Source of the DNA: Candidatus Nomurabacteria bacterium
Lineage (GTDB): Bacteria; Patescibacteriota; Patescibacteriia; HK-STAS-PATE-3
Direction: 5' to 3'
Length of the DNA stretch: 64,000 nt
Assembly (NCBI GenBank): GCA_023898465.1
Contig: CP060223.1
Span: 736,001-800,000 of the forward strand
The stretch's first letter is position 1. Every line of letters begins with the position of its first letter. Below the pieces are notes generated by a model. It saw only the letters and a program-made list of their open reading frames with translations, made no database searches and was not told the DNA's origin. The translations under genes were made by a program, and so were the position numbers. Shown in pieces: positions 1 through 41,386 of the stretch.

Positions 1-577
1 GAAAGGCTCCAAGCATGAAAGCTAGCTTCACATCACCAAGCCCCATTCCTACCTGCCCACTTGCCTTCTTATAGAACCAGCCGATCAGGTAGAAACTTAC
101 TCCTCCAGCCGCAGAGCCAGTGAGAGCTGGTACCAGGCCAATAGTCCAAGGTGAGAGCATCAATCCAAGTACAACTCCTCCCAAGCTGATTTCGTCGGGA
201 ATGATCCGCTCGCGCCAATCCGTGAAGAAGACAACGAGCAGACCAAAGAAAAACAGCCAGGCGGAAAACCTCGGTATCATGTCAGGAATGGCAACGTAGA
301 CCAGCAGGGCCAAGCCACCACCCAGCAGTTCAACCACAGGGTAGTGAAGCGAGATTGCTGACCGACAGTAGGCGCAACGCCCACGCAAAGCAATCCAGCT
401 CAAGACTGGAACGAGATGCCAGGATCGAAGACGTCGACCACAGCATGGCGCGTATGACCTTGGCGTGCATACGCTCTCCCTAGGAGGGAGGCGATGAATG
501 CACACATTAGCGAAACTGCCGAGCAAAGTGCCAACCATGAACACGAAGCTCGCAATCAGATACACACTTCCGTACAT
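1..577 (-). CDS. Prepilin peptidase (A24 family, PilD-like), N-terminal part; C-terminus runs off the window start
   Basis: Reverse-strand translation from the ATG at 577 (RBS GGGAGGAG 5 nt upstream). It gives MYGSVYLIASFVFMVGTLLGSFANVCIHRLP…CTPRSYAPCCGRRLRSWHLVPVLSWIALRGRCAYCR…MGLGDVKLAFMLGAF. The Cys-pair Zn motif, the LRGRC…C box and the G-x-G-D-x-K-L catalytic-region motif are classic for A24 peptidases. Not in the ORF track, probably because it is truncated by the window edge. Confidence 0.7.
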   Translation of the reverse strand, partial: MYGSVYLIASFVFMVGTLLGSFANVCIHRLPPRESVCTPRSYAPCCGRRLRSWHLVPVLSWIALRGRCAYCRSAISLHYPVVELLGGGLALLVYVAIPDMIPRFSAWLFFFGLLVVFFTDWRERIIPDEISLGGVVLGLMLSPWTIGLVPALTGSAAGGVSFYLIGWFYKKASGQVGMGLGDVKLAFMLGAF

Positions 578-686
578 GTCTCCTCCCTGAGTTTGTATTC
601 TCCCCTGGACACCCCTCTTGAGAGGTACCCGGGGAAGATCACGTCCACCGAAGCTTCATGCAAGGGTGGACGTGATCGCTGAGCGC

Positions 687-1097
687 TTACTCGCGCTGCG
701 GGGTCAGGACAAGGACGGACTCGCCATCCTTTCCATTGACCGTGATGCGATAGGAGGAGAAGAACTCGGCCGGATCGTAGTAGACCGCACCAGACTCCTT
801 CCCAGCCTTGTCGTAGGACCCGACGTCGTAGACCGCCGTACCTCCGAAGGGATTCCGGATACTACGCCTGGCGTTCGCCACCCCAGCGATGGAATCCGGA
901 TAGACTCCTCCGTTCGCTGTAGCCCAGTCATCGACCATGTCCTGCACTTCGTAGGCATTGGACTTGGCCGTCGACAGACGTGCCCTGTCCTGCAGCGCCA
1001 GGTAATTCGGGACGGCGATGAGCGCCAGGATCCCGATGATGACCACCACGATCATGAGCTCGATGAGGGTGAATCCCTCCTGATTCTTCCGAAGCAT
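687..1097 (-). CDS. Type IV pilin / pseudopilin-like protein (prepilin-type N-terminal cleavage/methylation domain)
   Basis: ORF 687..1163(-). An internal Met gives MLRKNQEG|FTLIELMIVVVIIGILA, the canonical G|F(T)LIE prepilin cleavage site followed by a hydrophobic helix. RBS GGAGGAAGTG precedes this ATG. Sits immediately upstream of the prepilin peptidase. Confidence 0.8.
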   Translation of the reverse strand: MLRKNQEGFTLIELMIVVVIIGILALIAVPNYLALQDRARLSTAKSNAYEVQDMVDDWATANGGVYPDSIAGVANARRSIRNPFGGTAVYDVGSYDKAGKESGAVYYDPAEFFSSYRITVNGKDGESVLVLTPQRE

Positions 1098-1140
1098 CAC
1101 TTCCTCCTCTCTGGCTTCACCGGCAGCCAGTTGCCGTTGT

Positions 1141-1230
1141 AGAGAATATTTTTCTCTCCGCAATCCTTATTCCCTTCCTCCCCTTTCAAAAGGGGAGGCT
1201 AGGTGGGGTTAAGAACTCTGGAGAGAGGAG
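1141..1230. repeat. Palindromic intergenic element, family A copy 1 (outer arms TCTCTCCGCAAT…CTCTGGAGAGAGG, inner perfect hairpin CTCCCCTTTcaaaAGGGGAG)
   Basis: Near-identical to 3612..3700. Lies directly 5' of the pilin start on the minus strand. Confidence 0.7.
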
Positions 1231-1581
1231 GAGGACAACCAAGGCAGAAGTGACACAAGGTCACAACCGCGAAGATCGACCCTCCTCCATGTGCTAGTGA
1301 CGCCCGCATTCGCGCCAAAGTTGGCGGGTGAGCAGACGGCGGTGATGCGTCAATCCGCATCGAGCTCGCAGCGCCCGACGACGCTGCCACTCGTGCAAAA
1401 AGAGTTCCACATGATGGAAAAATGATATGACACCCTCCATCACTTGAACTCCTGATTACAGAAGCAATACGCGCTCCGCGCCATCCATGTTACCCCGCTC
1501 AAGAAGAGCAAGAGACAAAAGAAGGCGGTGAGTGGCCCGATCGGAGTGGTCAGCGCTCCGAGCATGCCAAGCGATAGCAGT

Positions 1582-2211
1582 TCAGCAGCCACTGCCTGAA
1601 AAAGATATCGCATCCTTGCCTCCTAGGTTTCTGGTCCGATATGCACCGAACCAGACTACAACGTGACAGACCAGGCTGACGCCTGGATATACCAGAGCCG
1701 CGAAACCATCCGGCCAGGCAACAACACCTTGCAACGCATACGCCAGCACGCCCAAACTCCACGGCCACTGGCTCATGCGCTGAGTACGAGAGAAACTCAT
1801 CTTCGCTATAGGTACAAAGGAAGGGATCACCACCACCTGAGCGATGATGTTCTCTGCCTTTGGATTATGAGCAAGGGTTGCGTAACCCAGAGCTATCACA
1901 ACGCCAATTCCCATAGACATGTCCCACGCGTCGATCCTCGCAATCTGGCTGACTTGCTTCCACCCGAGCTTCACAATGTACGCAAGGGTGAAGAGCATGA
2001 TCAGGCTAATGCAGGCGACCTGCACATAGGTAAAGATGCGCGCGTAAAGTGACGTGAATTCCCGATAGGTAAGAAAATTCAACATCACCCACACAAACCA
2101 CATCCCGATGGTAACGGGATGCGGCACTTCGCCCTTGAAGATGGCTCGGAGATACGCGAAGTATGCTCCAGCCAAAGCCAAGGAAGCAAGAACCATACAT
2201 ACCGCTCCCAT
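1582..2211 (-). CDS. Hypothetical polytopic membrane protein
   Basis: 209-aa ORF with several hydrophobic helices. RBS GGAGGTATTC precedes the ATG. No recognisable family. Confidence 0.5.
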   Translation of the reverse strand: MGAVCMVLASLALAGAYFAYLRAIFKGEVPHPVTIGMWFVWVMLNFLTYREFTSLYARIFTYVQVACISLIMLFTLAYIVKLGWKQVSQIARIDAWDMSMGIGVVIALGYATLAHNPKAENIIAQVVVIPSFVPIAKMSFSRTQRMSQWPWSLGVLAYALQGVVAWPDGFAALVYPGVSLVCHVVVWFGAYRTRNLGGKDAISFSGSGC

Positions 2212-2282
2212 GAATACCTCCAGCTAAACGTGTTTTCTTCCTCCCTTGAATAACTAAACTCAATTTAGTAACTCAAGGGAGG

Positions 2283-2313
2283 CTCCGTCCATGTAGGTGT
2301 GACATGGACGGAG
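2283..2313. repeat. Perfect 12-bp inverted repeat CTCCGTCCATGT-(7)-ACATGGACGGAG
   Basis: Seen directly. Lies in the 5' region of the 1582..2211(-) gene. On the minus strand it is preceded by GGCGGCCGCC+T6, a terminator-like sequence. Confidence 0.6.
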
Positions 2314-2399
2314 CGGTACGGCCTTGAACCTTTCAAAAAAGGCGGCCGCCATCACTGCGCTGCGTATGTTTGGTGATGCAACGCTTTGTGACAAAGCTG

Positions 2400-2497
2400 T
2401 GGCAGATGCAGGATTCGAACCCAACGACTCGCGAAAGAGTCATCTGGTGAATCGGTTGTTAACCGACGGGACCACTCCCTGGTCACCAGCACCTGCC
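2400..2497 (-). ncRNA. tRNA-like structured element (7-bp acceptor-like stem GGCAGGT/ATCTGCC, GGGTTCGAATCC T-loop-like motif, several internal hairpins); not a canonical tRNA
   Basis: Minus-strand sequence GGCAGGTGCTGGTGACCAGGGAGTGGTCCCGTCGGTTAACAACCGATTCACCAGATGACTCTTTCGCGAGTCGTTGGGTTCGAATCCTGCATCTGCCA (98 nt). It has the T-loop consensus and a terminal acceptor-like pairing. It cannot be folded into a standard cloverleaf by hand. Confidence 0.3.
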
Positions 2498-2504
2498 AAT
2501 AAAG

Positions 2505-2555
2505 TATACACTCTCCGCAGTCCCGTACCTCACATGGTACGAGGCTCTGGAGAGA
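2505..2555. repeat. Palindromic intergenic element, family B copy 1 (arms CTCTCCGCAGTC…CTCTGGAGAG, inner hairpin CCGTACCtcacatGGTACGAG)
   Basis: Shares arms with family A but carries a different inner hairpin. Related copy at 3053..3112. Confidence 0.7.
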
Positions 2556-2594
2556 TCCGGAGCAAGTAACGTGTACTTACTCCGGAGAGAAAGG

Positions 2595-3014
2595 TCACAT
2601 GACGCGACCGAGCCTCGATCGAAGTCGTCCGAGCTGCGGCACAGTGAGAAGATCGTTCCGATGCTGAGAGCGTCGTCTCTCTTCTTCTGCACGACACCTC
2701 TCGGTCTCGCGCTTCTGTCGCTTGTCCGCTTCAGTCTTCCGCCACGCTTCCAGCGCGTGACGGAGCGTGTGGAGGACGTCGTACGCATCCTCCGGACGAT
2801 GCGATGCGCAATGTGGCTCGACCACTCCGTGCGTCTGACCTCGATGCGGGCAATACGCCTGCTTCGGACTGCAGGCTTGGCCGCACTGACGACAGACCAG
2901 ACTAGCCTCTTCCGGGTTCGCCAAGATCTTTTCGACCTCGGCTTCAGTGAAAGACCTCGGGACCATGTAGGACCCGGACTCGCTGAGAACCATCATCGAG
3001 ATTGAGAATGACAT
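2595..3014 (-). CDS. Hypothetical small Cys-rich protein (possible zinc-ribbon)
   Basis: 139-aa ORF with CRQCGQAC…CPH…C cysteine cluster and a basic C-terminus. RBS GAGGAGG precedes the ATG. Confidence 0.45.
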   Translation of the reverse strand: MSFSISMMVLSESGSYMVPRSFTEAEVEKILANPEEASLVCRQCGQACSPKQAYCPHRGQTHGVVEPHCASHRPEDAYDVLHTLRHALEAWRKTEADKRQKRETERCRAEEERRRSQHRNDLLTVPQLGRLRSRLGRVM

Positions 3015-3052
3015 CGTAGCCTCCTCACTGACTTCCGGCGTCAGCAGCCGCT

Positions 3053-3112
3053 TAGAGAAACCATTTCCTCTCCGCAGTCTCGTACCTCACATGGTACGAG
3101 GCTCTGGAGAGG
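3053..3112. repeat. Palindromic intergenic element, family B copy 2
   Basis: TAGAGAAACCATTTCCTCTCCGCAGTC + CTCGTACCtcacatGGTACGAG + GCTCTGGAGAGG. The left module is identical to that of A copy 2. Confidence 0.7.
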
Positions 3113-3157
3113 CCCCGAACTGTGGAAGCTCAGGGCGAAAATCGATTGGACTTGAGA

Positions 3158-3595
3158 CTAGGTTAGTCTCTCAACCGATTTCACGTACACCCAACCCTTC
3201 AATCGGCCTCGAACGTAAGATACGGTGACCTCACTTCCTTCAGCAACAGCATCGAAGAGCTGACGTTCTACAGAAACAGTATCTCGTCCTTCAGCAACAT
3301 CGACTGTCAGCTCCCACTTGTCGGAGTGGTGTACGCTTTGAGGCAGAGTCGTTTTTGTTGCCGCATTATAGACATACATAACGGTGACGTGTGCGGCCGT
3401 GAACGTCTTGTTAACAACGCGCCCTCGGCCCTCTTGAAGCGGTCGGAACCACGAGTCAATCGCCGTGAAGATGCCCCAACCCAGCGCAACGAGCACGATG
3501 AGCACGATGAGAAGTATGACTGCAGCTAGGAGTGACCCATAGGGCCAATCGTTCAAGAGCTCCATAAATCCCCTCATCATATCAGCCGAAAACAT
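3158..3595 (-). CDS. Hypothetical membrane-anchored protein (N-terminal TM helix, beta-rich C-terminal domain)
   Basis: 145-aa ORF. RBS AAAGGGAGGG precedes the ATG. Hydrophobic segment LLAAVILLIVLIVLVALGWGIF. Confidence 0.5.
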   Translation of the reverse strand: MFSADMMRGFMELLNDWPYGSLLAAVILLIVLIVLVALGWGIFTAIDSWFRPLQEGRGRVVNKTFTAAHVTVMYVYNAATKTTLPQSVHHSDKWELTVDVAEGRDTVSVERQLFDAVAEGSEVTVSYVRGRLKGWVYVKSVERLT

Positions 3596-3611
3596 ATCGC
3601 CCTCCCTTTGC

Positions 3612-3700
3612 TAGAGAAACCATTTCCTCTCCGCAGTCCTCATTCCCTTCCTCCCCTTTCAAAGGGGAGGCTAGGTGGGGTTAAGAACTCTGGAGAGAGG
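3612..3700. repeat. Palindromic intergenic element, family A copy 2
   Basis: TAGAGAAACCATTTCCTCTCCGCAGTCC…CTCCCCTTTcaaAGGGGAG…GTTAAGAACTCTGGAGAGAGG. Almost identical to 1141..1230. Confidence 0.7.
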
Positions 3701-3767
3701 AGGAGAAGGGCAGTCTTCTTCTCCAGTGTACTTGTCACCCGCTCTACTGCCTGCGGGAAAGAACTAG

Positions 3768-4217
3768 TCAGATGCACTCAGGGTGTGCACCGACATAACG
3801 CCCTTCCACTCCTATTGTAGAGACGTAATCTCCACAAATCTCCCCTCCACACATGACACAACCATGGGTAGCACATGGTTCCTTTTCTCGGGGTGTCCAG
3901 TCACAGGACCCCCCTCTTTCCTTGCCGCATGAGTAGCACGCGGCTACCCACTCGACAATTCCCTTGTGATCTTCAGGGGATTGGATGGGTACCTGGAATG
4001 ATATCCCCGTCAGATCCACACCACAGAATTTGCACTGTTTGTCATATACCGTCCCACGCCGAACTTCCAGTTCGGCTAGTCCGCGTTGATCCATCCCTGC
4101 CATTTCCCCTTTCCTTATGGTGGGGATATGATCGTTACAATATGCAACGTCATAAAGCAGGCCAGATGTGTAGTGAGTCGCGACCTGGTTACACGTATGA
4201 CAATGGATGGTCTTCAT
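3768..4217 (-). CDS. Hypothetical Cys-rich protein (multiple CxxC pairs)
   Basis: 149-aa ORF with about 16 Cys, including CHTC, CKFC, CYSC and CVMCGGEIC motifs. Confidence 0.45.
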   Translation of the reverse strand: MKTIHCHTCNQVATHYTSGLLYDVAYCNDHIPTIRKGEMAGMDQRGLAELEVRRGTVYDKQCKFCGVDLTGISFQVPIQSPEDHKGIVEWVAACYSCGKERGGSCDWTPREKEPCATHGCVMCGGEICGDYVSTIGVEGRYVGAHPECI

Positions 4218-9616: not shown

Positions 9617-10885
9617 CTATACTTCGCGCTCGCCTAAAGTGAGTTGAATAGTTTTTTCCTCACCATCATGCAATACCTTCAGACTAACAGTATCGCCTAC
9701 CTTATAGTCAATTAAGATATTTGTCAGCGTGGTATCCGAAGTAATTTTCTTGCCATCGAATTCCAGGATAATATCGTTTTCCTCTAGGCCAGCCTTATCT
9801 GCCGGACTGCCTGGGATAACCGCCAACTCGGAAGCATCACTTCCTCGAACGAGTAGAGCGCCATAATCAACTGAGAGATTGTTTTGCTCCTGCATATTGG
9901 CAGTGACTACCGTGTAGCGAATGCCTAGGTAAGGACGAACAATTTTCCCTTTTTCCTGCACGCTTTGCACATCCTGTTTAGCTGCATTAATTGGAATAGC
10001 AAAGCCAAGTGATTGACCCTCAGTAGAAACTGCGGTGTTCACGCCAATTACTTCACCGGAAATGTTCAGTAATGGACCGCCTGAGTTTCCTGAATTAATT
10101 GCCGCATCGGTCTGAATGGTGTCTTCAATCACTTCGGTTTGGCCGCTGCCATCACCTGCTTCAATAGTACGAGAGAGACCTGACACAATACCTTTCGTCA
10201 CTGTGTTTTGGAATCGACCTAAGGCGTTTCCAATTGCAATCACTGTTTCACCGATTTGCACGCTTTCTGAATCGCCCAGCTTCACTGCTGGTAAACCAGT
10301 TTTATCAATCTTCAAAATCGCCAAATCAAGACTTGGGTCTCGGGCTAAAACTTGTGCATCAACCCGCGTGCCATCATTCAGCACGACTGAGTAATCAATG
10401 GTCTCTAAATCTACTACATGCTTATTGGTAAGAATTAAACCATCGCTGGAAACAATAAAACCTGTACCACCGCGCACATCGCGCTTACCTTGTTGGGGCT
10501 GACTCGGCACCCCAATGCCAAATGGAGAGAAAAAATTTGAATCTTGAGAAATCTGACTAAAATCCTGCGTCCCAATGACGCTCACCACACTATCTTGCAC
10601 CTGATTCACTACATCAACCGTAGCTGAATCCTCGGCTACTTGCACCGTACGATTTTCAGTAATTGCTGAGCCTGAGGCATTTAAGCCAAAAAGTTTTTCA
10701 ATCCCACTGCCAAGTTGATTATTCACCGCCAACACGCCAAATACTGCTCCGGAAATAGCGCCGAGCACTAAACTAAACACGACCGCCATGATAAGTATGG
10801 AACGGAAAGCTTTTTTCTCGCTCTCGTGCATGGTCGGCTGAGAGGGTCTTACATTGTGATTTTCTTGTGGTGTGATATCCCCCAT
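9617..10885 (-). CDS. htrA: HtrA/DegP-family serine protease with C-terminal PDZ domain, N-terminal membrane anchor
   Basis: Catalytic triad context: TNKHVV (His), D, GNSGGPLLN (Ser). PDZ-like C-terminus. A terminator-like hairpin CCCAATGC…GTATTGGG+T5 lies downstream of the neighbouring gene. Confidence 0.85.
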   Translation of the reverse strand: MGDITPQENHNVRPSQPTMHESEKKAFRSILIMAVVFSLVLGAISGAVFGVLAVNNQLGSGIEKLFGLNASGSAITENRTVQVAEDSATVDVVNQVQDSVVSVIGTQDFSQISQDSNFFSPFGIGVPSQPQQGKRDVRGGTGFIVSSDGLILTNKHVVDLETIDYSVVLNDGTRVDAQVLARDPSLDLAILKIDKTGLPAVKLGDSESVQIGETVIAIGNALGRFQNTVTKGIVSGLSRTIEAGDGSGQTEVIEDTIQTDAAINSGNSGGPLLNISGEVIGVNTAVSTEGQSLGFAIPINAAKQDVQSVQEKGKIVRPYLGIRYTVVTANMQEQNNLSVDYGALLVRGSDASELAVIPGSPADKAGLEENDIILEFDGKKITSDTTLTNILIDYKVGDTVSLKVLHDGEEKTIQLTLGEREV

Positions 10886-13331: not shown

Positions 13332-13763
13332 TTACTTTAGCAGGCGCTTCTGCAATGCGTCAAATGCGGTAAGAGCTCGCTGTACTGTACTCATAAGTGG
13401 TAAATTCCCCGCCTCCGCAATAGTCACCCATCGATACTCGTCATGCTCGTCGCTTAAATGGACTTGCTGCTCTTCAGTGGTGCACCAGATATACATTCCA
13501 ACAATATGTCGTTTGAGGCCCTGGATTGTTGGCTCCCAAGCATCAATGGAAATTGGAATATCAACGCGAATATGCAAACCCGTTTCTTCCGCCACTTCCC
13601 GTTTTATGCCATCAAATGGTGATTCACCTAAGCCTAAACGGCCTCCAGGAACATCCCATTTACCAACATTTGTCGCTTCATCATATGCCCGCTCGCGAAG
13701 TAAAAGAATTTTATCTTTATGCGTAATGATCGCTTTTACCGCTACAAATTGTTCTTGGGGCAT
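13332..13763 (-). CDS. NUDIX hydrolase
   Basis: Nudix box GGRLGLGESPFDGIKREVAEETGL. Confidence 0.8.
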   Translation of the reverse strand: MPQEQFVAVKAIITHKDKILLLRERAYDEATNVGKWDVPGGRLGLGESPFDGIKREVAEETGLHIRVDIPISIDAWEPTIQGLKRHIVGMYIWCTTEEQQVHLSDEHDEYRWVTIAEAGNLPLMSTVQRALTAFDALQKRLLK

Positions 13764-33834: not shown

Positions 33835-34554
33835 CTAGTACGCGTTTTCGCGATAATAATGATAGACTCGCGGCTGACGTCCAGGTAAGCTCACGTGCAG
33901 TATTTCATCAGCGTTATAGCTGCTCGCGTCAATCCGATCGCCTAACACCTGTGCCCACTCACCAACCCGAATTGGCACATCAGGCCGAATCAAGGTGTCG
34001 TTGGCATAGTAGATAACAAAGTCATTTCCATTTGGCGCTACCAGGAGAAAACCAGGGTCACTTACCTCGACAATTTTTCCTGATACCCAGCTATCGCCTG
34101 AGTAACGCTCATGCATTATCGGCTCTAGGAAGCGAATACCACGCGCTGAATCTGGCACGCCAGCTTGATCAAGTAAAACAGCAAAGAGCGTGACGCCGCC
34201 GACCATGCCAACCGCTACCCATAGAAAGGTGTGCTTGTAAGAAAACTCGTACTTGCGCATCAGCCAAATACCTAGAGTGATACCAACTACTGCGACGAAA
34301 ATTGGGATCCACGGCACGTTCTCGATAAATGGACCAATACCGCCGTGACCAAGGTAGCTCAAAGGCTGGTGCACGCGTAATCGATAGAGCACCACGCTGA
34401 AGAAGAAGAGCGTCAGCGCCATACTAGCCAATAATCCAACGCTCAGCGCTATACCACCTATGATGAAATAGGCCTTCGGGCGCATCTGGAGTTTTTGCTC
34501 CTTAATCTCCTGTGTAATTTGTTCAGCCAGTGACGGCTTGGGTTTCTCGTTCAT
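33835..34554 (-). CDS. Putative anti-sigma factor (membrane protein encoded directly downstream of, and overlapping, the ECF sigma gene)
   Basis: 239 aa with a cytoplasmic N-terminus and 3–4 TM helices. Overlaps the sigma gene by 32 nt. Confidence 0.45.
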   Translation of the reverse strand: MNEKPKPSLAEQITQEIKEQKLQMRPKAYFIIGGIALSVGLLASMALTLFFFSVVLYRLRVHQPLSYLGHGGIGPFIENVPWIPIFVAVVGITLGIWLMRKYEFSYKHTFLWVAVGMVGGVTLFAVLLDQAGVPDSARGIRFLEPIMHERYSGDSWVSGKIVEVSDPGFLLVAPNGNDFVIYYANDTLIRPDVPIRVGEWAQVLGDRIDASSYNADEILHVSLPGRQPRVYHYYRENAY

Positions 34555-35095
34555 ACAAAGTTTTGAGTAACTTTTTACCCCGGTTAATACGCGTCCCCAC
34601 TGTCCCGATCGGAATGTGGAGCACGTCGCGAATTTCTTCGTATACTAAATCTTGAAAGTAGAAAAGGATGAGCGGCTCTCGATATTTAATATCCAACTTA
34701 TCGAGGCATCGCTCAAGCATGCGACGAATTTCTTTGCGCTCAAATTTTTCCTGGGCGCTCTCTTTGGTATCCGGCACCACATGCACTTCCGGCGTTTCAT
34801 CAATCGACACTTCTCGTTTGTGTTTTTTCAATTCATTCATGGCCTCATTATGCACGATGCGATATATCCAGCTAGAAAACTTTTTCTTCACTTGGAAACC
34901 TTGTAAGTTTACAAAGGCCTTGATAAAAGCCGATTGCAAAACGTCCTCCGCCCTATCCGGATCTTTCACCAGAGTGAGCGCATAACGTCGCAAGCGCTCT
35001 TCATATCGCTCTACTACAAAACGGTAGAGTTCTTGATCGCGTTCGCGAACCTGGACAACAAGCTCTTCATCGCTCAATTCGGCTGGGTCTGGCAT
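34523..35095 (-). CDS. ECF-type RNA polymerase sigma factor (sigma-70 regions 2 and 4)
   Basis: Region 2 …LVKDPDRAEDVLQSAFIKAF…; region 4 HTH …REPLILFYFQDLVYEEIRDVLHIPIGTVGTRINRGKKLL. Confidence 0.85.
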   Translation of the reverse strand: MPDPAELSDEELVVQVRERDQELYRFVVERYEERLRRYALTLVKDPDRAEDVLQSAFIKAFVNLQGFQVKKKFSSWIYRIVHNEAMNELKKHKREVSIDETPEVHVVPDTKESAQEKFERKEIRRMLERCLDKLDIKYREPLILFYFQDLVYEEIRDVLHIPIGTVGTRINRGKKLLKTLYERETQAVTG

Positions 35096-35217
35096 ACGGT
35101 ATATATACTACACTAAAAGGCGATTTTTTATTTCAAAGCCTATTTGACACTCCAAAAAATGGGCAGTAGAGTGGACAAGCGATTCCACCACATCTAGCCG
35201 AAAGTAAGGAGGGCAAG

Positions 35218-35523
35218 ATGTCCTTGGTCGTTGTAACACATGATGGTAGCCTGCCATGCAACCGTGGAGGCACGGGTAGGCGTGTTGGCTACTTCTCGCC
35301 TGAATCGCGGATGTATTTCCCTCTGACCGGGGGCAGTGTCTACATCCCGATTCCTCCGCCACCGCCCAAACCTCCAAACTACTTCGAACTTCCGAGAACC
35401 ACCTGGCGTGACCGCTGCATCGAGTGTAATGGTCACACGAGCTGGAAGAGGAAGAAACTCGAAGGCGGCGTGCGTGAGGTCAAGGTCTGCGAAGAGTGTG
35501 GCAAGCTGATGCGTCCGTACTAG
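35218..35523 (+). CDS. Hypothetical small protein with C-terminal CxxC…CxxC zinc ribbon and poly-Pro tract
   Basis: 101-aa ORF. Followed by a strong rho-independent terminator. Confidence 0.4.
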   Translation: MSLVVVTHDGSLPCNRGGTGRRVGYFSPESRMYFPLTGGSVYIPIPPPPPKPPNYFELPRTTWRDRCIECNGHTSWKRKKLEGGVREVKVCEECGKLMRPY

Positions 35524-35533
35524 AGCGTCCGTG

Positions 35534-35569
35534 GACCGCTTCTCAATCTGAGAGGCGGTCTTTTTTCTT
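35534..35569 (+). terminator. Rho-independent terminator (GACCGCTTCTCAatcTGAGAGGCGGTC + T6CTT)
   Basis: Seen directly. A TTGACA -35-like hexamer follows immediately. Confidence 0.75.
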
Positions 35570-35642
35570 GACAGTGCAGCGTATTGTCGTTAAGGTGCTG
35601 GGTCGGAAACTGGACATTCACAAACGCAATGAAGGAGGGACT

Positions 35643-36035
35643 GTGTCATACGATCCAAACGCTTTTTTCCCGCCCTACATGAATTCGACCAACGAGGGTA
35701 ACCAGCATAGCGCCGGCATGCACGTGGTCGGGCTGCAGTTCTTCTTGGACGGCCTGATCATCGGCGGCAAGATCAACGCGCCACTCATCCCGATCACCGG
35801 AATGACTGACGAGGCCACGGCGAACGCGGTGAAAGCGCTCCAGCGCGAGCTCGGCATGAGCGACGTTGATGGCAACTTCGGCCAGGGTACCAGGGAAGCC
35901 CTGCTCCGTGCCACCAGCTTCAACTTCAACACGATCCCTGGATCGATCCGTACCATCCAGGGAATCTGGATCGACCCGGACGGAAATCTCAAGCCTTGGC
36001 CCCTGGCGTTCACCGACGATCTGCCCGGCGACTAG
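35643..36035 (+). CDS. Small peptidoglycan-binding-domain (PG_binding_1-like) protein
   Basis: Start taken at GTG 35643 (RBS AAGGAGGG), downstream of the terminator that lies inside the listed ORF 35496..36035. Motif AVKALQRELGMSDVDGNFGQGTREALL. Confidence 0.55.
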   Translation: MSYDPNAFFPPYMNSTNEGNQHSAGMHVVGLQFFLDGLIIGGKINAPLIPITGMTDEATANAVKALQRELGMSDVDGNFGQGTREALLRATSFNFNTIPGSIRTIQGIWIDPDGNLKPWPLAFTDDLPGD

Positions 36036-36047
36036 GACCCACCCGCG

Positions 36048-36084
36048 CCGCCTCTTCTTTCACGGAGAGGCGGTCTTTTCTTTT
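36048..36084 (+). terminator. Rho-independent terminator (CCGCCTCTtctttcacggAGAGGCGG + TCTTTTCTTTT)
   Basis: Seen directly. Its right arm and downstream ~45 bp are near-duplicates of the 35534 module. Confidence 0.75.
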
Positions 36085-36111
36085 GACCTCGCAGCATCTT
36101 GGATGTATGTT
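36083..36111 (+). promoter_or_regulatory. Sigma-70-like promoter TTGACC-17-TATGTT upstream of the transposase gene
   Basis: Seen in sequence. About 36 nt upstream of the TTG start. Confidence 0.5.
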
Positions 36112-36146
36112 ACACACAGACAAAGGTGGCGCCTTAGGGTTACCTT

Positions 36147-36722
36147 TTGACCCAGCGCAGAATTTATCAAAACACATACCCATACCATCTCACCACGGTA
36201 ACGAAAAACCGACGGTGGGCATTTCGAGATGTGAAACTAGCATGGAAATTGCACCAGGCAATTCTTGGCGCGTGTTTTGTTAAAGGTTACACCGCGCTGG
36301 CATTTTGCATATTACCGGACCATATACATTTGTTGGTTTGGAAGCATATCCCAGCGCGGGTAGGAGAACCCACGCTGGGCCTGGATGAAATACAAACACA
36401 ATTATTATTCCCCGAAGCCCAGCGCGCGTTCTCTAACGTGCGCGATAACAACCATGATGACATTTCATACTTAATGAAATCAATAAAAGGCACCTTTGCT
36501 CGATCAATTTCCTCCGGCCCCATCTGGCAACCCAGCTTCAATTCCCGCATCGTCGACTCTGATCAACGCCTCTACAACACACTGCAGTATATTCAATATA
36601 ATTATCGTAAACATAAACTACCCGCACACTATGGCCAAGCACCATATACCTTTCTTAATATCCCAAAAAGCATTTACAACATTGACCAAAACCGGTTTTT
36701 CTCGTACGATGGCAGAGATTGA
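36147..36722 (+). CDS. IS200/IS605-family HuH Y1 transposase-like protein, solitary (RayT/TnpA-REP-like)
   Basis: TTG start. YHLTTVTKNRR and ILPDHIHLLV (HuH) motifs are typical of Y1 transposases. No accompanying tnpB or IS ends are evident. Confidence 0.7.
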   Translation: MTQRRIYQNTYPYHLTTVTKNRRWAFRDVKLAWKLHQAILGACFVKGYTALAFCILPDHIHLLVWKHIPARVGEPTLGLDEIQTQLLFPEAQRAFSNVRDNNHDDISYLMKSIKGTFARSISSGPIWQPSFNSRIVDSDQRLYNTLQYIQYNYRKHKLPAHYGQAPYTFLNIPKSIYNIDQNRFFSYDGRD

Positions 36723-38303
36723 TTGGACTTATGTATGCCGGCACCTCGCGCCAAAAAGACCACAAAGAAAAACCCGCCAAAGCAAGCGTCTGAAAAAATA
36801 GCAGAGGCTCAAATTATCATACCTGAGGCATCACCAGCGATAGAGATACCCAAGACTGCAACTCCACACTTCTTTGGATGGAAATTTTTTGTTGTGCTGG
36901 GAATTATCACTGGACTTTCCATGGGCTTTGCTACTTTTTCACGTGTCATTGATCCTCCAAATACCAATGGCGCAGTCGGCACCGAGCAACTCTCCCTACT
37001 CCAACACATTAATCAGCTGGTGGAGAATCAAAACAGACCTTTGCAAGGTGAGTCACGCGACCGGGTGAATATCCTCCTGCTGGGTATTGGCGGCGAAGGA
37101 CACGAGGGCGCCCTTTTAGCCGATACTATCATCCTGGCCAGTCTCCAACCCTCAACTGGAAAAATTGCACTGCTCTCTATCCCTCGTGACTTCTATGTTC
37201 CTATCCCGGGATATGATTGGCGCAAAATTAACAACGCAAATGCTTTTGGAGAAGTAGACGACTACCCGGGCGGTGGTGAACGCTTAACCGCTGATGTGCT
37301 CGAAGATATCTTAGATGTTGATATTCCTTATACTGCGAGAATCGATTTCAACGGCTTCATTCAAATGGTGGATAATCTCGGCGGCATAAGTGTTGATGTG
37401 GAAAAAGGCTTTGTCGACACACGATACCCAACCGAGAACTATGGGTATCAAACCATTCGCTTCGATGCCGGTCGTCAGACCATGGACGGCGAAACTGCAT
37501 TGAAGTTTGTCCGTTCGCGTAAAAGCACTTCTGACTTTGATCGATCGCGACGCCAACAACTCGTTTTACTTGCCCTCCGACAAAAGGCCCTCAACTTCGG
37601 CACTCTGATAAACCCTAGCCGCATATCGGACGTCCTCGGCAGTCTTTCAAGCAATGCACACACAAATATGGAACTATGGGAAATCCTGCGTCTCGCTGAA
37701 CTGGTTGAAGACGCTGACACCACAAACATAATCAATGTCATCCTGGATAGCAGCGCCGACAGTCCGCTTATGGATGATCGCACAACTGTTGACAATGCCT
37801 ACATCGTCCGACCAAGAAAAGGTTGGGATGACTGGTCAGAGCTCCAAGATATTGCCAACAACATCTTTCAACGGGAGGGTGAAGCACAACCCTTAACTGC
37901 TTCCGTGGTCGTACAAAACGGCACTCGTACCGTGGGTCTGGCCAGTGAAACTGCAGACATACTGGAGAGCTACGGACTCGAGGTTATCGATATCGGGAAC
38001 ACAAGCGTCCGTGGTTATACGCAAACCTATATTTATGATATTAGTAATGGTGAAAAGGCTATGGCATTAGCAGCACTGAGACAGGCCCTACCTTTTGCTC
38101 ATGTGTACTCTAAGACCCCGCTCTATCTCAACCCCGACGCACTACTGACCACAGACCTCAGCGGCCGAATTACCGAGATAGCAGTCGAATTACAACAAGA
38201 AACCCATCCTGACTTTGTCGTTATCCTAGGCGACGATACTGATCCTGATGTACTCTTATCTCACAGCAAGACAAGTAGCTCCTCACTGATAACCAGTCGA
38301 TAG
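36723..38303 (+). CDS. LytR-CpsA-Psr (LCP) family cell-envelope phosphotransferase
   Basis: TM anchor followed by the LCP domain (…LLLGIGGEGHEGALLADTIILASL…LSIPRDFYVPIPGY…) and a LytR_C-like C-terminus. Confidence 0.85.
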   Translation: MDLCMPAPRAKKTTKKNPPKQASEKIAEAQIIIPEASPAIEIPKTATPHFFGWKFFVVLGIITGLSMGFATFSRVIDPPNTNGAVGTEQLSLLQHINQLVENQNRPLQGESRDRVNILLLGIGGEGHEGALLADTIILASLQPSTGKIALLSIPRDFYVPIPGYDWRKINNANAFGEVDDYPGGGERLTADVLEDILDVDIPYTARIDFNGFIQMVDNLGGISVDVEKGFVDTRYPTENYGYQTIRFDAGRQTMDGETALKFVRSRKSTSDFDRSRRQQLVLLALRQKALNFGTLINPSRISDVLGSLSSNAHTNMELWEILRLAELVEDADTTNIINVILDSSADSPLMDDRTTVDNAYIVRPRKGWDDWSELQDIANNIFQREGEAQPLTASVVVQNGTRTVGLASETADILESYGLEVIDIGNTSVRGYTQTYIYDISNGEKAMALAALRQALPFAHVYSKTPLYLNPDALLTTDLSGRITEIAVELQQETHPDFVVILGDDTDPDVLLSHSKTSSSSLITSR

Positions 38304-40167: not shown

Positions 40168-40351
40168 AGAAAAAACGCCAGTGTCAGTTTTCCTACGAGT
40201 GCGGGGCTTCACACTCTTTTTTGTAGTACTTACCAACACTGGCGTTGCAGGTCCGGAGGGTCGTCCGGACAGAGAAGGACATCGGCCGCGCTTGGCGAGA
40301 AGGAAGCGAGCTTCAATGCGAGTCTCACTCAAGCAACGACCGACGTCCATG

Positions 40352-40423
40352 TGCCGTGGGAGGGATTCGAACCCCCAACCTTCAGATTACGAGTCAGATG
40401 CTCTACCACTGAGCTACCACGGC
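40352..40423 (-). tRNA. tRNA-Thr (anticodon CGU)
   Basis: Manual cloverleaf GCCGTGG…CCACGGC-A. Anticodon arm TCTGA-CTCGTAA-TCTGA has one U·U pair. Confidence 0.7.
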
Positions 40424-40579
40424 AGCTGTGTTGCGGGTCCTCAGGGCCTGCATGCTCTTCCCAGCGTACTGGACACTTTGGGCTGCAACACAACTTTTTA
40501 AGGACAGGCCGGGAAAATCCCGGGGGTGTTTATCTATGCACCTCTCGGTGAACTGATGGTATTTCACCTGTCCAAGATG

Positions 40580-40650
40580 AGCGGGAGACGGGATTTGAAC
40601 CCGCGACCTTCCGCCAGAGGCGGCTGCTCTGCCAACTGAGCTACGCCCGC
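40580..40650 (-). tRNA. tRNA-like gene with non-canonical anticodon arm (isotype undetermined; possible pseudogene)
   Basis: Acceptor GCGGGCG/CTCCCGC has one mismatch. D and T arms are canonical. Between them CCGCC-TCT-GGCGG forms a perfect 5-bp stem with only a 3-nt loop, so no 7-nt anticodon loop can be drawn. Confidence 0.45.
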
Positions 40651-40796
40651 AAAAAAGAACGGACTAAGAATGTAGCGTATCCCCAAAAAGCTGTCAACCC
40701 TGTACCAGGCTTGGTGCGAGGTCAACCCTATCGTTCGCGAACTACGGAATCAAGAAAAAGGGAGATGCCATCAATGATGAACATCTCCCGAAGATT

Positions 40797-40868
40797 TGGT
40801 ACCTCCTGGAATCGAACCAGGGTAACCCGATTTTCAGTCGAGCACTCTACCAACTGAGTTAAGGTACC
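40797..40868 (-). tRNA. tRNA-Phe (anticodon GAA)
   Basis: GGTACCT acceptor. Anticodon arm CTCGA-CTGAAAA-TCGGG. T-loop TTCGATT. Confidence 0.8.
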
Positions 40869-40956
40869 GCTAGAGCGTGGCGGAAAGGCGAAGGACTTTC
40901 ACCAACTCACTGATCAAGACCAGCGTGTCCTCGGGGACGCCTTTCCAGAACAGATG

Positions 40957-41028
40957 AGGCGGGTCAAGGATTTGAACCTCGGAATCGCGGATTTGAAGAC
41001 CGCTGCCTTACCACTTGGCTAACCCGCC
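40957..41028 (-). tRNA. tRNA with UCA anticodon, tRNA-Cys-like body (candidate UGA-reading tRNA)
   Basis: GGCGGGT/ACCCGCC acceptor with discriminator U73. Anticodon arm GCGGT-CTTCAAA-TCCGC gives U33, anticodon 34-36 = UCA, A37. Short variable loop, 72 nt. The acceptor, discriminator and anticodon stem closely resemble bacterial tRNA-Cys (GCA), with G34 changed to U. Confidence 0.55.
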
Positions 41029-41050
41029 TTTCAACCTATAAGTTAGAGAG

Positions 41051-41124
41051 GCGCCCTGGAAGGAATTGAACCTCCGACATCTGGGTCCATAGCCCAGCGC
41101 TCTTCCGACTGAGCTACAGGGCAC
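41051..41124 (-). tRNA. tRNA-His-like (extra 5' G-1 opposite C73); anticodon reads AUG by manual fold, atypical
   Basis: G-1 + TGCCCTG acceptor with C73. D-arm GCTC-AGTCGGAA-GAGC. Anticodon arm CTGGG-CTATGGA-CCCAG. Body resembles tRNA-His, but position 34 is A rather than G. Confidence 0.45.
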
Positions 41125-41133
41125 AACAAACGG

Positions 41134-41206
41134 TAGCGCAAGCAGGATTCAAACCTACGTTTCCACACAGAGAATGTGGCGACCTAAACCACTAGTCGAT
41201 TGCGCC
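41134..41206 (-). tRNA. tRNA, anticodon CUC by manual fold (Glu-like), atypical U37
   Basis: GGCGCAA/TTGCGCT acceptor (G1·U72). Anticodon arm CCACA-TTCTCTG-TGTGG. T-loop TTTGAAT. Confidence 0.45.
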
Positions 41207-41311
41207 GGCAAATAGATTGCGACAGACCCTCTTCCGAGAGAGTGACGGCTCATCCTGCTATGAAAGAGGCCATCACAAAATGGTAAGCAATGTACTACAC
41301 CTGATCTAATG

Positions 41312-41386
41312 CGGCGCTGACAGGATTTGAACCTGCGAAACACTCGGCTGACCGCCGAGCTGCCTTAACCACTAGACTACAGCGCC
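41312..41386 (-). tRNA. tRNA-Asp-like (anticodon GUC), with 6-bp anticodon stem and G33
   Basis: GGCGCTG/CAGCGCC acceptor. Anticodon arm GCTCGG-CGGTCAG-CCGAGT. 75 nt. Confidence 0.5.

Follow-up and report, generated by a model that had tools for sequence, protein, structure and literature searches.

In-frame REP-like palindromes in a RAYT-like transposase gene of Candidatus Nomurabacteria

The TnpA-Y1 family of transposases has been divided into 12 subclasses, of which only subclass 2.4 was described as having repetitive extragenic palindromes (REPs) in-frame within its tnpA-REP genes (Quentin, Siguier, Chandler & Fichant 2018, PMC6006769). In that subclass, the REPs form a variable insertion at beta3:alphaC, some of them of a "double foot" type, and the insert was taken to be a peripheral extension that hardly affects the activity of the protein (PMC6006769). 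In-frame intragenic REPs have also been reported in unrelated genes (Di Nocera et al. 2013, PMC3733652), and Group 4 of the REP-associated tyrosine transposases (RAYTs) was found to have few REP-like repeats, the flanking 16-mers occurring ~14 times (Bertels et al. 2017, PMC5581495). Here, we analyzed a transposase gene at 36147-36722 (+) of a 64,000-nt stretch of a Candidatus Nomurabacteria genome (contig CP060223.1; hereafter the window, numbered from its first letter). We consider it likely that this gene encodes a RAYT enzyme of an almost Patescibacteria-only clade, and that its cognate inverted palindrome pair lies in-frame within the gene itself, where it would be kept by selection at the nucleotide level.

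The open reading frame (ORF) is genuine and intact. It encodes 191 aa from a TTG start, and profile, PDB and fold evidence identify the product as a RAYT/TnpA-REP-like Y1 HuH tyrosine transposase; the identical (100%) NCBI protein, encoded on a contig of 1.08 Mb, is annotated "MAG: transposase [Candidatus Nomurabacteria bacterium]". An original prediction, made from the letters of the window alone, had proposed a 191-aa Y1 transposase with HuH and Tyr motifs, and this was confirmed by a Pfam Y1_Tnp match (PF01797; E 3.8e-10, 40.4 bits, cut-off 23) and by both sets of catalytic residues. The HuH motif codons H59-I60-H61, read from the sequence in the context PDHIH, lie at 36321-36329 (+), while the catalytic Tyr motif Y148-I-Q-Y-N152 (YIQYN) lies at 36588-36602 (+), with the Y148 codon at 36588-36590, and aligns with YIYINP of the Escherichia coli TnpA-REP structure 4ER8. 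Across an alignment of 48 homologs, H61, K114, Y148 and N152 were invariant and H59, W127 and Q128 nearly so. The AlphaFold2 model had a mean predicted local distance difference test (pLDDT) score of 83, with core values above 90; the C-terminal ~20 residues (aa 172-191) had low pLDDT and were not present in homologs. Using a family hidden Markov model against all six frames, we found one copy of the gene in the window. The transposase of this candidate phyla radiation (CPR) clade is predicted to be probably active.

Profile, sequence and structure comparisons bore out the proposal that the protein is RayT-like and not a canonical IS200 transposase. It scored 64 bits (E 1.3e-17) with the NCBIfam model REP_Tyr_transpos (NF047646) compared to 25 bits (E 1.7e-5) with transpos_IS200 (NF033573), and the RAYT model was matched by all 48 family members (48/48), at best with E 7e-34. 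The only notable PDB sequence match was 4ER8, in an alignment spanning HuH, IWQP and YIxxN. The same structure was the top Foldseek match of the AlphaFold2 model (E 1.7e-9, target-normalised TM-score 0.71), followed at ranks 2-30 by ISDra2, IS608 and IS200 transposases with TM-scores of ~0.6; down to E 3e-4, the matches were exclusively Y1 transposases. The Tyr motif YIQYNY carries the class-2 Asn (Y---N) and not the IS200 Gln. From these comparisons, the enzyme is best assigned to the RAYT/TnpA-REP type, class 2 of the TnpA-Y1 family, and not to an IS200 element.

A phmmer search of 1.84 billion representative proteins returned 292 matches at E <= 1e-3, and related loci (labelled L001 and onward) were collected from GTDB species genomes with a 13-sequence alignment as the query. 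The close-relative loci L003-L025 nearly all bore the label Patescibacteria, Kerfeldbacteria, or unclassified "bacterium" or "uncultured bacterium", with three binned as "Gammaproteobacteria". Distant relatives from Anaerolineae, Dehalococcoidia, Peribacteria and other groups had canonical PDH[IVL]H, WQ and YIHYNP motifs. The family therefore appears, as judged from these searches, to be small and largely confined to CPR bacteria.

These data also bear on whether an IS200/IS605 element with decayed ends left the gene behind as a remnant or solo tnpA, an origin that could be argued from the name "IS200 like" given to Pfam Y1_Tnp, from the weaker NCBIfam IS200 match, and from the different neighbouring genes found in most relatives. 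We consider this origin highly improbable. The Tyr motif is of the Y---N and not the Y---Q form, scores are higher for the RAYT profile and the 4ER8 fold, and no tnpB was present among the neighbours of the gene in the window or beside the gene in five relatives. There were no flanking end hairpins, and synteny with a sigma factor gene was conserved in three genomes. Within-genome paralogs are also divergent, with three in one Kerfeldbacteria metagenome-assembled genome sharing 69% and 30% identity; since paralogs within a single genome are only 30-69% identical, they are RAYT-like rather than copies of an insertion sequence (IS). We rejected an IS200 remnant on the grounds of motif, profile and fold, and the absence of end hairpins and tnpB. 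The original description of a solitary gene with no tnpB and no IS ends likewise held, based on the domains of its neighbours, inspection of hairpins, and a scan with R1, a covariance model of the clade's palindromes.

The feature that sets the assigned RAYT gene apart from that of E. coli is an in-frame insert of aa 67-105 (36345-36461, +), located between strand 59-66, which is the HuH strand, and helix 106-120, and modelled by AlphaFold2 as a low-confidence loop (pLDDT ~52-54). It accounts for ~37 extra residues after the HuH strand compared to E. coli TnpA-REP, which are also missing from insert-less relatives. Two GC-rich, REP-like palindromes lie within it. Palindrome 1, CCCAGCGCGGGT-AGGAGA-ACCCACGCTGGG, is at 36350-36379 (-), encodes PARVGEPTLG and scored 33.8 bits with R1. 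Palindrome 2, GCGCGCGTT-CTCT-AACGTGCGC, is at 36422-36443 (+) with a CCCAG foot at 36418, encodes AQRAFSNVR and scored 33.9 bits, its match being on the - strand in the orientation of the model. The two palindromes are inverted relative to each other and are translated in two different reading frames. The insert DNA folded better than 200/200 shuffles, with z = -3.6 as DNA and z = -3.8 as RNA (-44.6 kcal/mol).

An insert at this site is common in the family, being present in 58 and absent from 29 of 87 representatives, these being the proteins where both anchor motifs were identifiable. Peptide words from the inserts, captured with regular expressions that were composed after inspection of the data, corresponded to three reading frames of one palindrome: QRALEKARC and QRGLSSPRC in frame a, ARVGEPTLG and ERVSVPAMG in frame b, and AATESRARG in frame c. 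At the DNA level, 22 of 25 close-relative loci had 1-4 GC-rich palindromes ~200-330 nt into the gene, with stems of 9-16 bp and loops of mostly 4 nt. Where at least two in-gene matches to R1 were found, their orientation was + then - in all cases but one (17/18), an inverted, REPIN-like doublet. A separate observation concerns L011, where palindrome arms GCGCGGGCT and AGCCCGCGC lie ~55 nt apart within the gene (10215-10300), an arrangement suggestive of a nested insertion that interrupted a hairpin.

Constraint on the palindromes was assessed by comparing the window gene with those of L001 and L003 (55-61% protein identity to the query). Across the three genomes, no other DNA stretch of the gene was as well conserved as palindrome 1, which had 87-90% DNA identity and 80-90% identity at third positions. 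The corresponding values were 55-70% and 36-47% for the gene core, and 31-64% and 17-67% for the spacer between the palindromes. Pairing of palindrome 2 was kept by compensatory changes in the comparison with L001 and L003 (CGCGTT/AACGTG, CACGTT/AACGTG and CGTCTT/AAGACG). These patterns suggest that the in-gene palindromes are under nucleotide-level and not protein-level constraint.

A gap-free alignment of 44 hairpins, oriented by loop, gave a consensus with an NGAR loop closed by a T-A pair and a lower stem of GCGC. Covariation in the upper stem was free, with 135 cells changed on both sides compared to ~50 in shuffles, and the covariation score was 0.57 compared to <=0.15 for slid controls. 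The foot was asymmetric, one side being T in 40/44 hairpins and its partner A in 24/44 or C in 17/44. Read in the opposite orientation, it is 5'-C[C/A]NAG-CGC (A in 40/44, G in 35/44), and this C[C/A]NAG foot is the analogue of the canonical REP GT[AG]G foot. Mismatches within the inner stem were likewise asymmetric, with 15 of the A.C type and 1 of the G.T type in one orientation; in palindrome 1, a top-strand C.A mismatch is a G.T wobble on the bottom strand. Because this bias is 15:1 and the other strand pairs through G.T wobbles, each hairpin would have one defined folding strand. In the window, the working strand is inferred to be the bottom (non-coding) strand for palindrome 1 and the top strand for palindrome 2.

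The strand bias of the mismatches argues for single-stranded DNA rather than mRNA as the folded molecule. IS200 tnpA is under mRNA-structure control, and the insert is strongly folded as RNA, both of which would fit hairpins that act in the mRNA as translational or stability control of the transposase. We think this quite improbable, as palindrome 1 folds best on the non-coding strand, a form that is absent from the mRNA, and the same palindromes occur outside genes and on both sides of insert-less relatives. Regulation through mRNA only was rejected on the basis of the non-coding-strand folding and the extragenic copies.

Another reading is that the in-gene palindromes are neutral passengers, REP copies tolerated in a permissive surface loop, as was proposed for subclass 2.4 with its suggestion of little impact on protein activity (PMC6006769). 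This reading fits an insert that lies in a low-confidence peripheral loop, insert-less relatives that keep all motifs, and the occurrence of intragenic in-frame REPs in unrelated genes (PMC3733652). Passengers would not be expected to show the conservation of palindrome 1 above the gene core, including at third positions, the near-fixed +/- orientation of the pair, the stem pairing retained through compensatory changes, or the 15:1 strand bias of mismatches. We therefore regard neutral passage as unlikely and favour a palindrome pair maintained by selection on its nucleotide sequence.

Scanning the 64-kb window with R1, with filters off, recovered just the two in-gene hairpins, the next best match having 11 bits and E > 1. 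Of the sites found by R1 at E <= 0.01 in 336 kb around close relatives, 41 were in-gene and 12 were extragenic. Extragenic matches of at least 25 bits numbered 9 in 322 kb of the relatives' flanks compared to 1 in 865 kb of control loci, these being the surroundings of distant relatives, where that one match lay away from the RAYT gene. In five loci, an extragenic copy was less than 100 nt from the gene: 47 nt upstream in L002, where the copy is identical to the in-gene copy, 27 nt downstream in L004, 17 nt upstream in L013, 37 nt downstream in L016, and 86 nt upstream in L018. Further copies lay kilobases from the gene in L015, L018, L019, L022 and L011.

In a metagenome scan for the window-type palindrome with the pattern CAGCGCGGGT..ACCCRCGCTG, 76/77 occurrences were outside RAYT-like ORFs and were mostly unrelated GC-rich palindromes; L092 provided a further in-gene example. 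Insert-less RAYT-like ORFs of ~145-150 aa in L120, L149 and L084/L155 had a palindrome on both sides, which is the classic REPtron layout. Weak R1 matches were also seen flanking distant RAYT-like genes (L035 9946-10481, L036 1368-1903, L027 9919-9952, L029 2958-2991), and suggest that the architecture of GCGC stem and NGAR loop is shared well beyond the CPR clade, in Dehalococcoidia and Anaerolineae. Outside its gene, L011 carries canonical double-foot GTAG palindromes, CGTAGCGCGG..CCGCGCTACG (2435-2464 and 13571-13600), and is the only locus with such copies.

Several observations weigh against a RAYT with a selected, cognate in-gene palindrome pair. The 64-bit profile score is below the curated equivalog cut-off of 80 bits for REP_Tyr_transpos, a shortfall that we attribute to the in-frame insert, which splits the match into two stretches. 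The whole clade has Y, F or H in place of the Pro of the class-2 Y---NP motif (Y---NY in the window protein), and the foot reads C[C/A]NAG instead of the canonical GT[AG]G. There are no extragenic palindrome copies in the 64-kb window, flanking copies included, and the insert is not required for the fold, since insert-less family members exist. Finally, the hairpins used for covariation were pre-selected as hairpins, and the percentage of paired positions is therefore partly built in and should be interpreted with caution.

The original prediction also named two sets of repeats in the window as possible substrates of the enzyme: a family of palindromic elements at 1141-3710 and duplicated hairpin modules at 35534-36111. 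Both sets of repeats exist, but their proposed role as substrates was not supported. The palindromic family consists of a nested hairpin present four times (1150-1233, 2511-2561, 3068-3118 and 3623-3705). Its sequence is CTCTCCGCAGTC-[inner hairpin]-CTCTGGAGAG, and each copy is just 5' of a small minus-strand gene, one of them a pilin-like ORF (687-1163), in a GC-rich island at 1-4000. These nested hairpins look like shared 5' leader or inter-cistronic elements; an Rfam scan of 1000-3900 returned no family for them, giving chance miRNA-like hairpin matches and a weak tRNA-Sec match. As for the hairpin modules, they form a direct repeat of 51 nt with 75% identity between the copies. Their two hairpins (35533-35561 and 36047-36074) have T-runs and score as intrinsic terminators, and TTGAC (a -35 box) comes after each of them. 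In L005, this module (GACCGCTTCTTCTTGCAAGGAGCGGTCTTTTCTTGAC) also stands ahead of the orthologous gene.

Mobilization of these elements or modules by the enzyme is most improbable. They are repeated and structured and share the same 64 kb with the RAYT gene. When scanned with the clade REP model, though, their best scores were <=11 bits with E > 1, and they have no C[C/A]NAG foot next to GCGC. The 1141-3710 elements are 32 kb from the RAYT gene, each associated with its small minus-strand gene, while the modules are terminator and promoter units, one copy of which is conserved as such ahead of the L005 gene. Accordingly, the terminator modules were rejected as REPs, and the 1141-3710 elements were rejected as substrates from the R1 scan.

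The RAYT gene lies between a gene with a PG_binding_1 domain (Pfam) upstream and a gene for an LCP protein with LytR_cpsA_psr and LytR_C domains downstream. It was originally placed between a terminator-promoter module and the LCP gene, with its stop abutting the LCP start, and this arrangement was upheld. The intrinsic-terminator-like hairpin of the upstream gene (36047-36074, +) bounds the unit; it has no match to R1 and is not a REP. A promoter-like site for the RAYT gene, TTGACC-17-TATGTT, follows at 36083-36111 (+), with an equivalent TTGAC after the terminator in L005. The RAYT stop codon TGA occupies 36720-36722, and the LCP ORF has a possible TTG start at 36723 and an alternative in-frame ATG at 36735. 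A second promoter-like sequence, TTGACC-17-TACGAT, was noted at 36682-36710 (+), within the non-conserved 3' tail of the RAYT gene and immediately 5' of the LCP gene. The kilobase containing the RAYT gene has a GC content of 0.47, equal to the window background, and the upstream kilobase one of 0.54.

Gene order was compared among the window (34523-36146), L005 (8839-10000) and L001 (1-384). An extracytoplasmic function (ECF) sigma-70 gene located divergently upstream is orthologous in all three (61% and 74% identity), and a small zinc-ribbon ORF is common to the window and L005 (36% identity). The conserved order of the locus is ECF sigma-70 (-), small zinc-ribbon ORF (+), terminator-promoter module, and RAYT. 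Synteny in L005 and L001 points to vertical inheritance of this sigma factor, zinc-ribbon and RAYT locus. The window has an extra PG_binding_1 gene (~35496-36035) in the 0.54-GC kilobase; as this gene comes with the second module copy, the module duplication is best explained by a gene insertion in which a terminator-promoter unit was brought in or duplicated. The genes adjoining RAYT differ in other parts of the clade. Judging from gene order, the RAYT gene has moved over longer time scales but is stably placed in this lineage.

Other features of the window concern tRNA genes, to which matches in an Rfam scan of the whole window were limited. Seven are tightly arrayed at 40351-41386 (-), namely Thr-cgt, Arg-tct, Phe-gaa, tca, His-atg, Glu-ctc and Asp-gtc, of which the 73-nt tca tRNA has a UGA-reading anticodon and was called selenocysteine (SeC) by ARAGORN. 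The array sits in a stretch of higher GC content (0.53-0.55 compared to ~0.47-0.49) and may represent either an acquired island or a tRNA cluster of phage origin. ARAGORN also called a 99-nt tRNA-Val(aac) at 2399-2497 (-), which was not reported by the Rfam tRNA model and whose sole Rfam match was a weak one to tRNA-Sec (22 bits, E 0.3). Possible explanations are a mistaken call and an unusual tRNA with an intron.

Returning to the RAYT and its in-gene palindrome pair, we propose the following mechanism. By analogy with E. coli TnpA-REP, the single-domain HuH nuclease would bind a GC-rich hairpin in single-stranded DNA. With Y148 and an H59/H61-bound metal, it would then cut and rejoin the strand beside the hairpin foot. 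Within the surface loop after the HuH strand, one palindrome of the pair would be oriented for each DNA strand, and the pair would be kept as a putative recognition site physically linked to the gene. Transcription would start from the gene's own predicted promoter downstream of the upstream terminator, in a locus of ECF sigma factor, small zinc-ribbon gene and RAYT that would be passed on vertically in the lineage. Binding and cleavage of single-stranded DNA, and any transposition or regulatory outcome, are inferred by analogy.

A bolder extension, which we put forward as tentative and think rather doubtful, is that the in-ORF REP pair is perhaps the main or only palindrome copy in streamlined CPR genomes, making it an obligatory cis element and the gene a minimal RAYT-REPIN unit at one vertically inherited locus. 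In that case, the substrate of the enzyme during replication would be its own gene, for instance to limit itself or to seed new copies, and the clade would lend itself naturally to testing what a RAYT does for its host with almost no REPIN population. This clade bears on the role of RAYTs and on their persistence as single-copy, vertically inherited genes. It offers a compact case, with palindromes inside the gene that are more conserved than the surrounding coding DNA and a strand bias toward single-stranded DNA. Genes of this kind are labelled only "transposase" because the in-frame insert lowers their score below the curated RAYT cut-off.

Among described systems, we compared the gene with E. 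coli TnpA-REP (RayT, 4ER8), whose HuH, WQP and YIxxN motifs align with those of the window protein and which is also a solitary, single-copy gene tied to GC-rich palindromes. However, sequence identity is just 17%, the E. coli gene has no in-gene insert, and its REPs, of which there are hundreds, are GTAG-footed and flank the gene. E100, H101 and R104, with which the E. coli enzyme recognises GTAG, are not conserved in the window protein. The TnpA proteins of IS200/IS605 elements (IS608, ISDra2 and IS200) share the Y1 HuH fold and a chemistry on single-stranded DNA hairpins, which is predicted here. IS200 differs in its Y---Q motif, and these elements have subterminal left- and right-end hairpins, often a tnpB, and many near-identical copies, none of which were seen in the window. 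Rickettsia palindromic elements (RPEs) and intragenic REPs (PMC3733652) resemble the insert in being short palindromic repeats in-frame that add 10-30 loop residues; the difference is that the host gene here is the cognate transposase, with site, pairing and orientation conserved clade-wide.

The closest resemblance was to subclass 2.4 (RAYT Group 4 of Bertels et al.), a likeness drawn by setting features and motifs beside the descriptions in PMC6006769. Shared features include in-frame palindromes in a variable-length insert, here between strand 59-66 and helix 106-120, the WQ motif, long "double-foot" REPs, a median protein length of ~194 aa, low copy number, divergent paralogs, and few REP copies per genome. 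The other motifs differ, with PDHIH here compared to NH[IFV]H for HuH and YIQYNY compared to YIxNNP for the Tyr motif, such that WQ alone agrees. The foot is C[C/A]NAG rather than GT[AG]G, and the hosts are Patescibacteria rather than Cyanobacteria or Bacteroidetes. Among the top-ranked results of a literature search, no paper was found that combined RAYTs or TnpAREP with CPR bacteria. The in-gene REP phenomenon is already known, and the window gene is a further member, possibly of a new subclass. Its addition to the literature is modest, and consists of palindrome conservation above that of coding sequence, a fixed orientation of the pair, strand-biased mismatches, and an extension of the RAYT-REP association to Patescibacteria.

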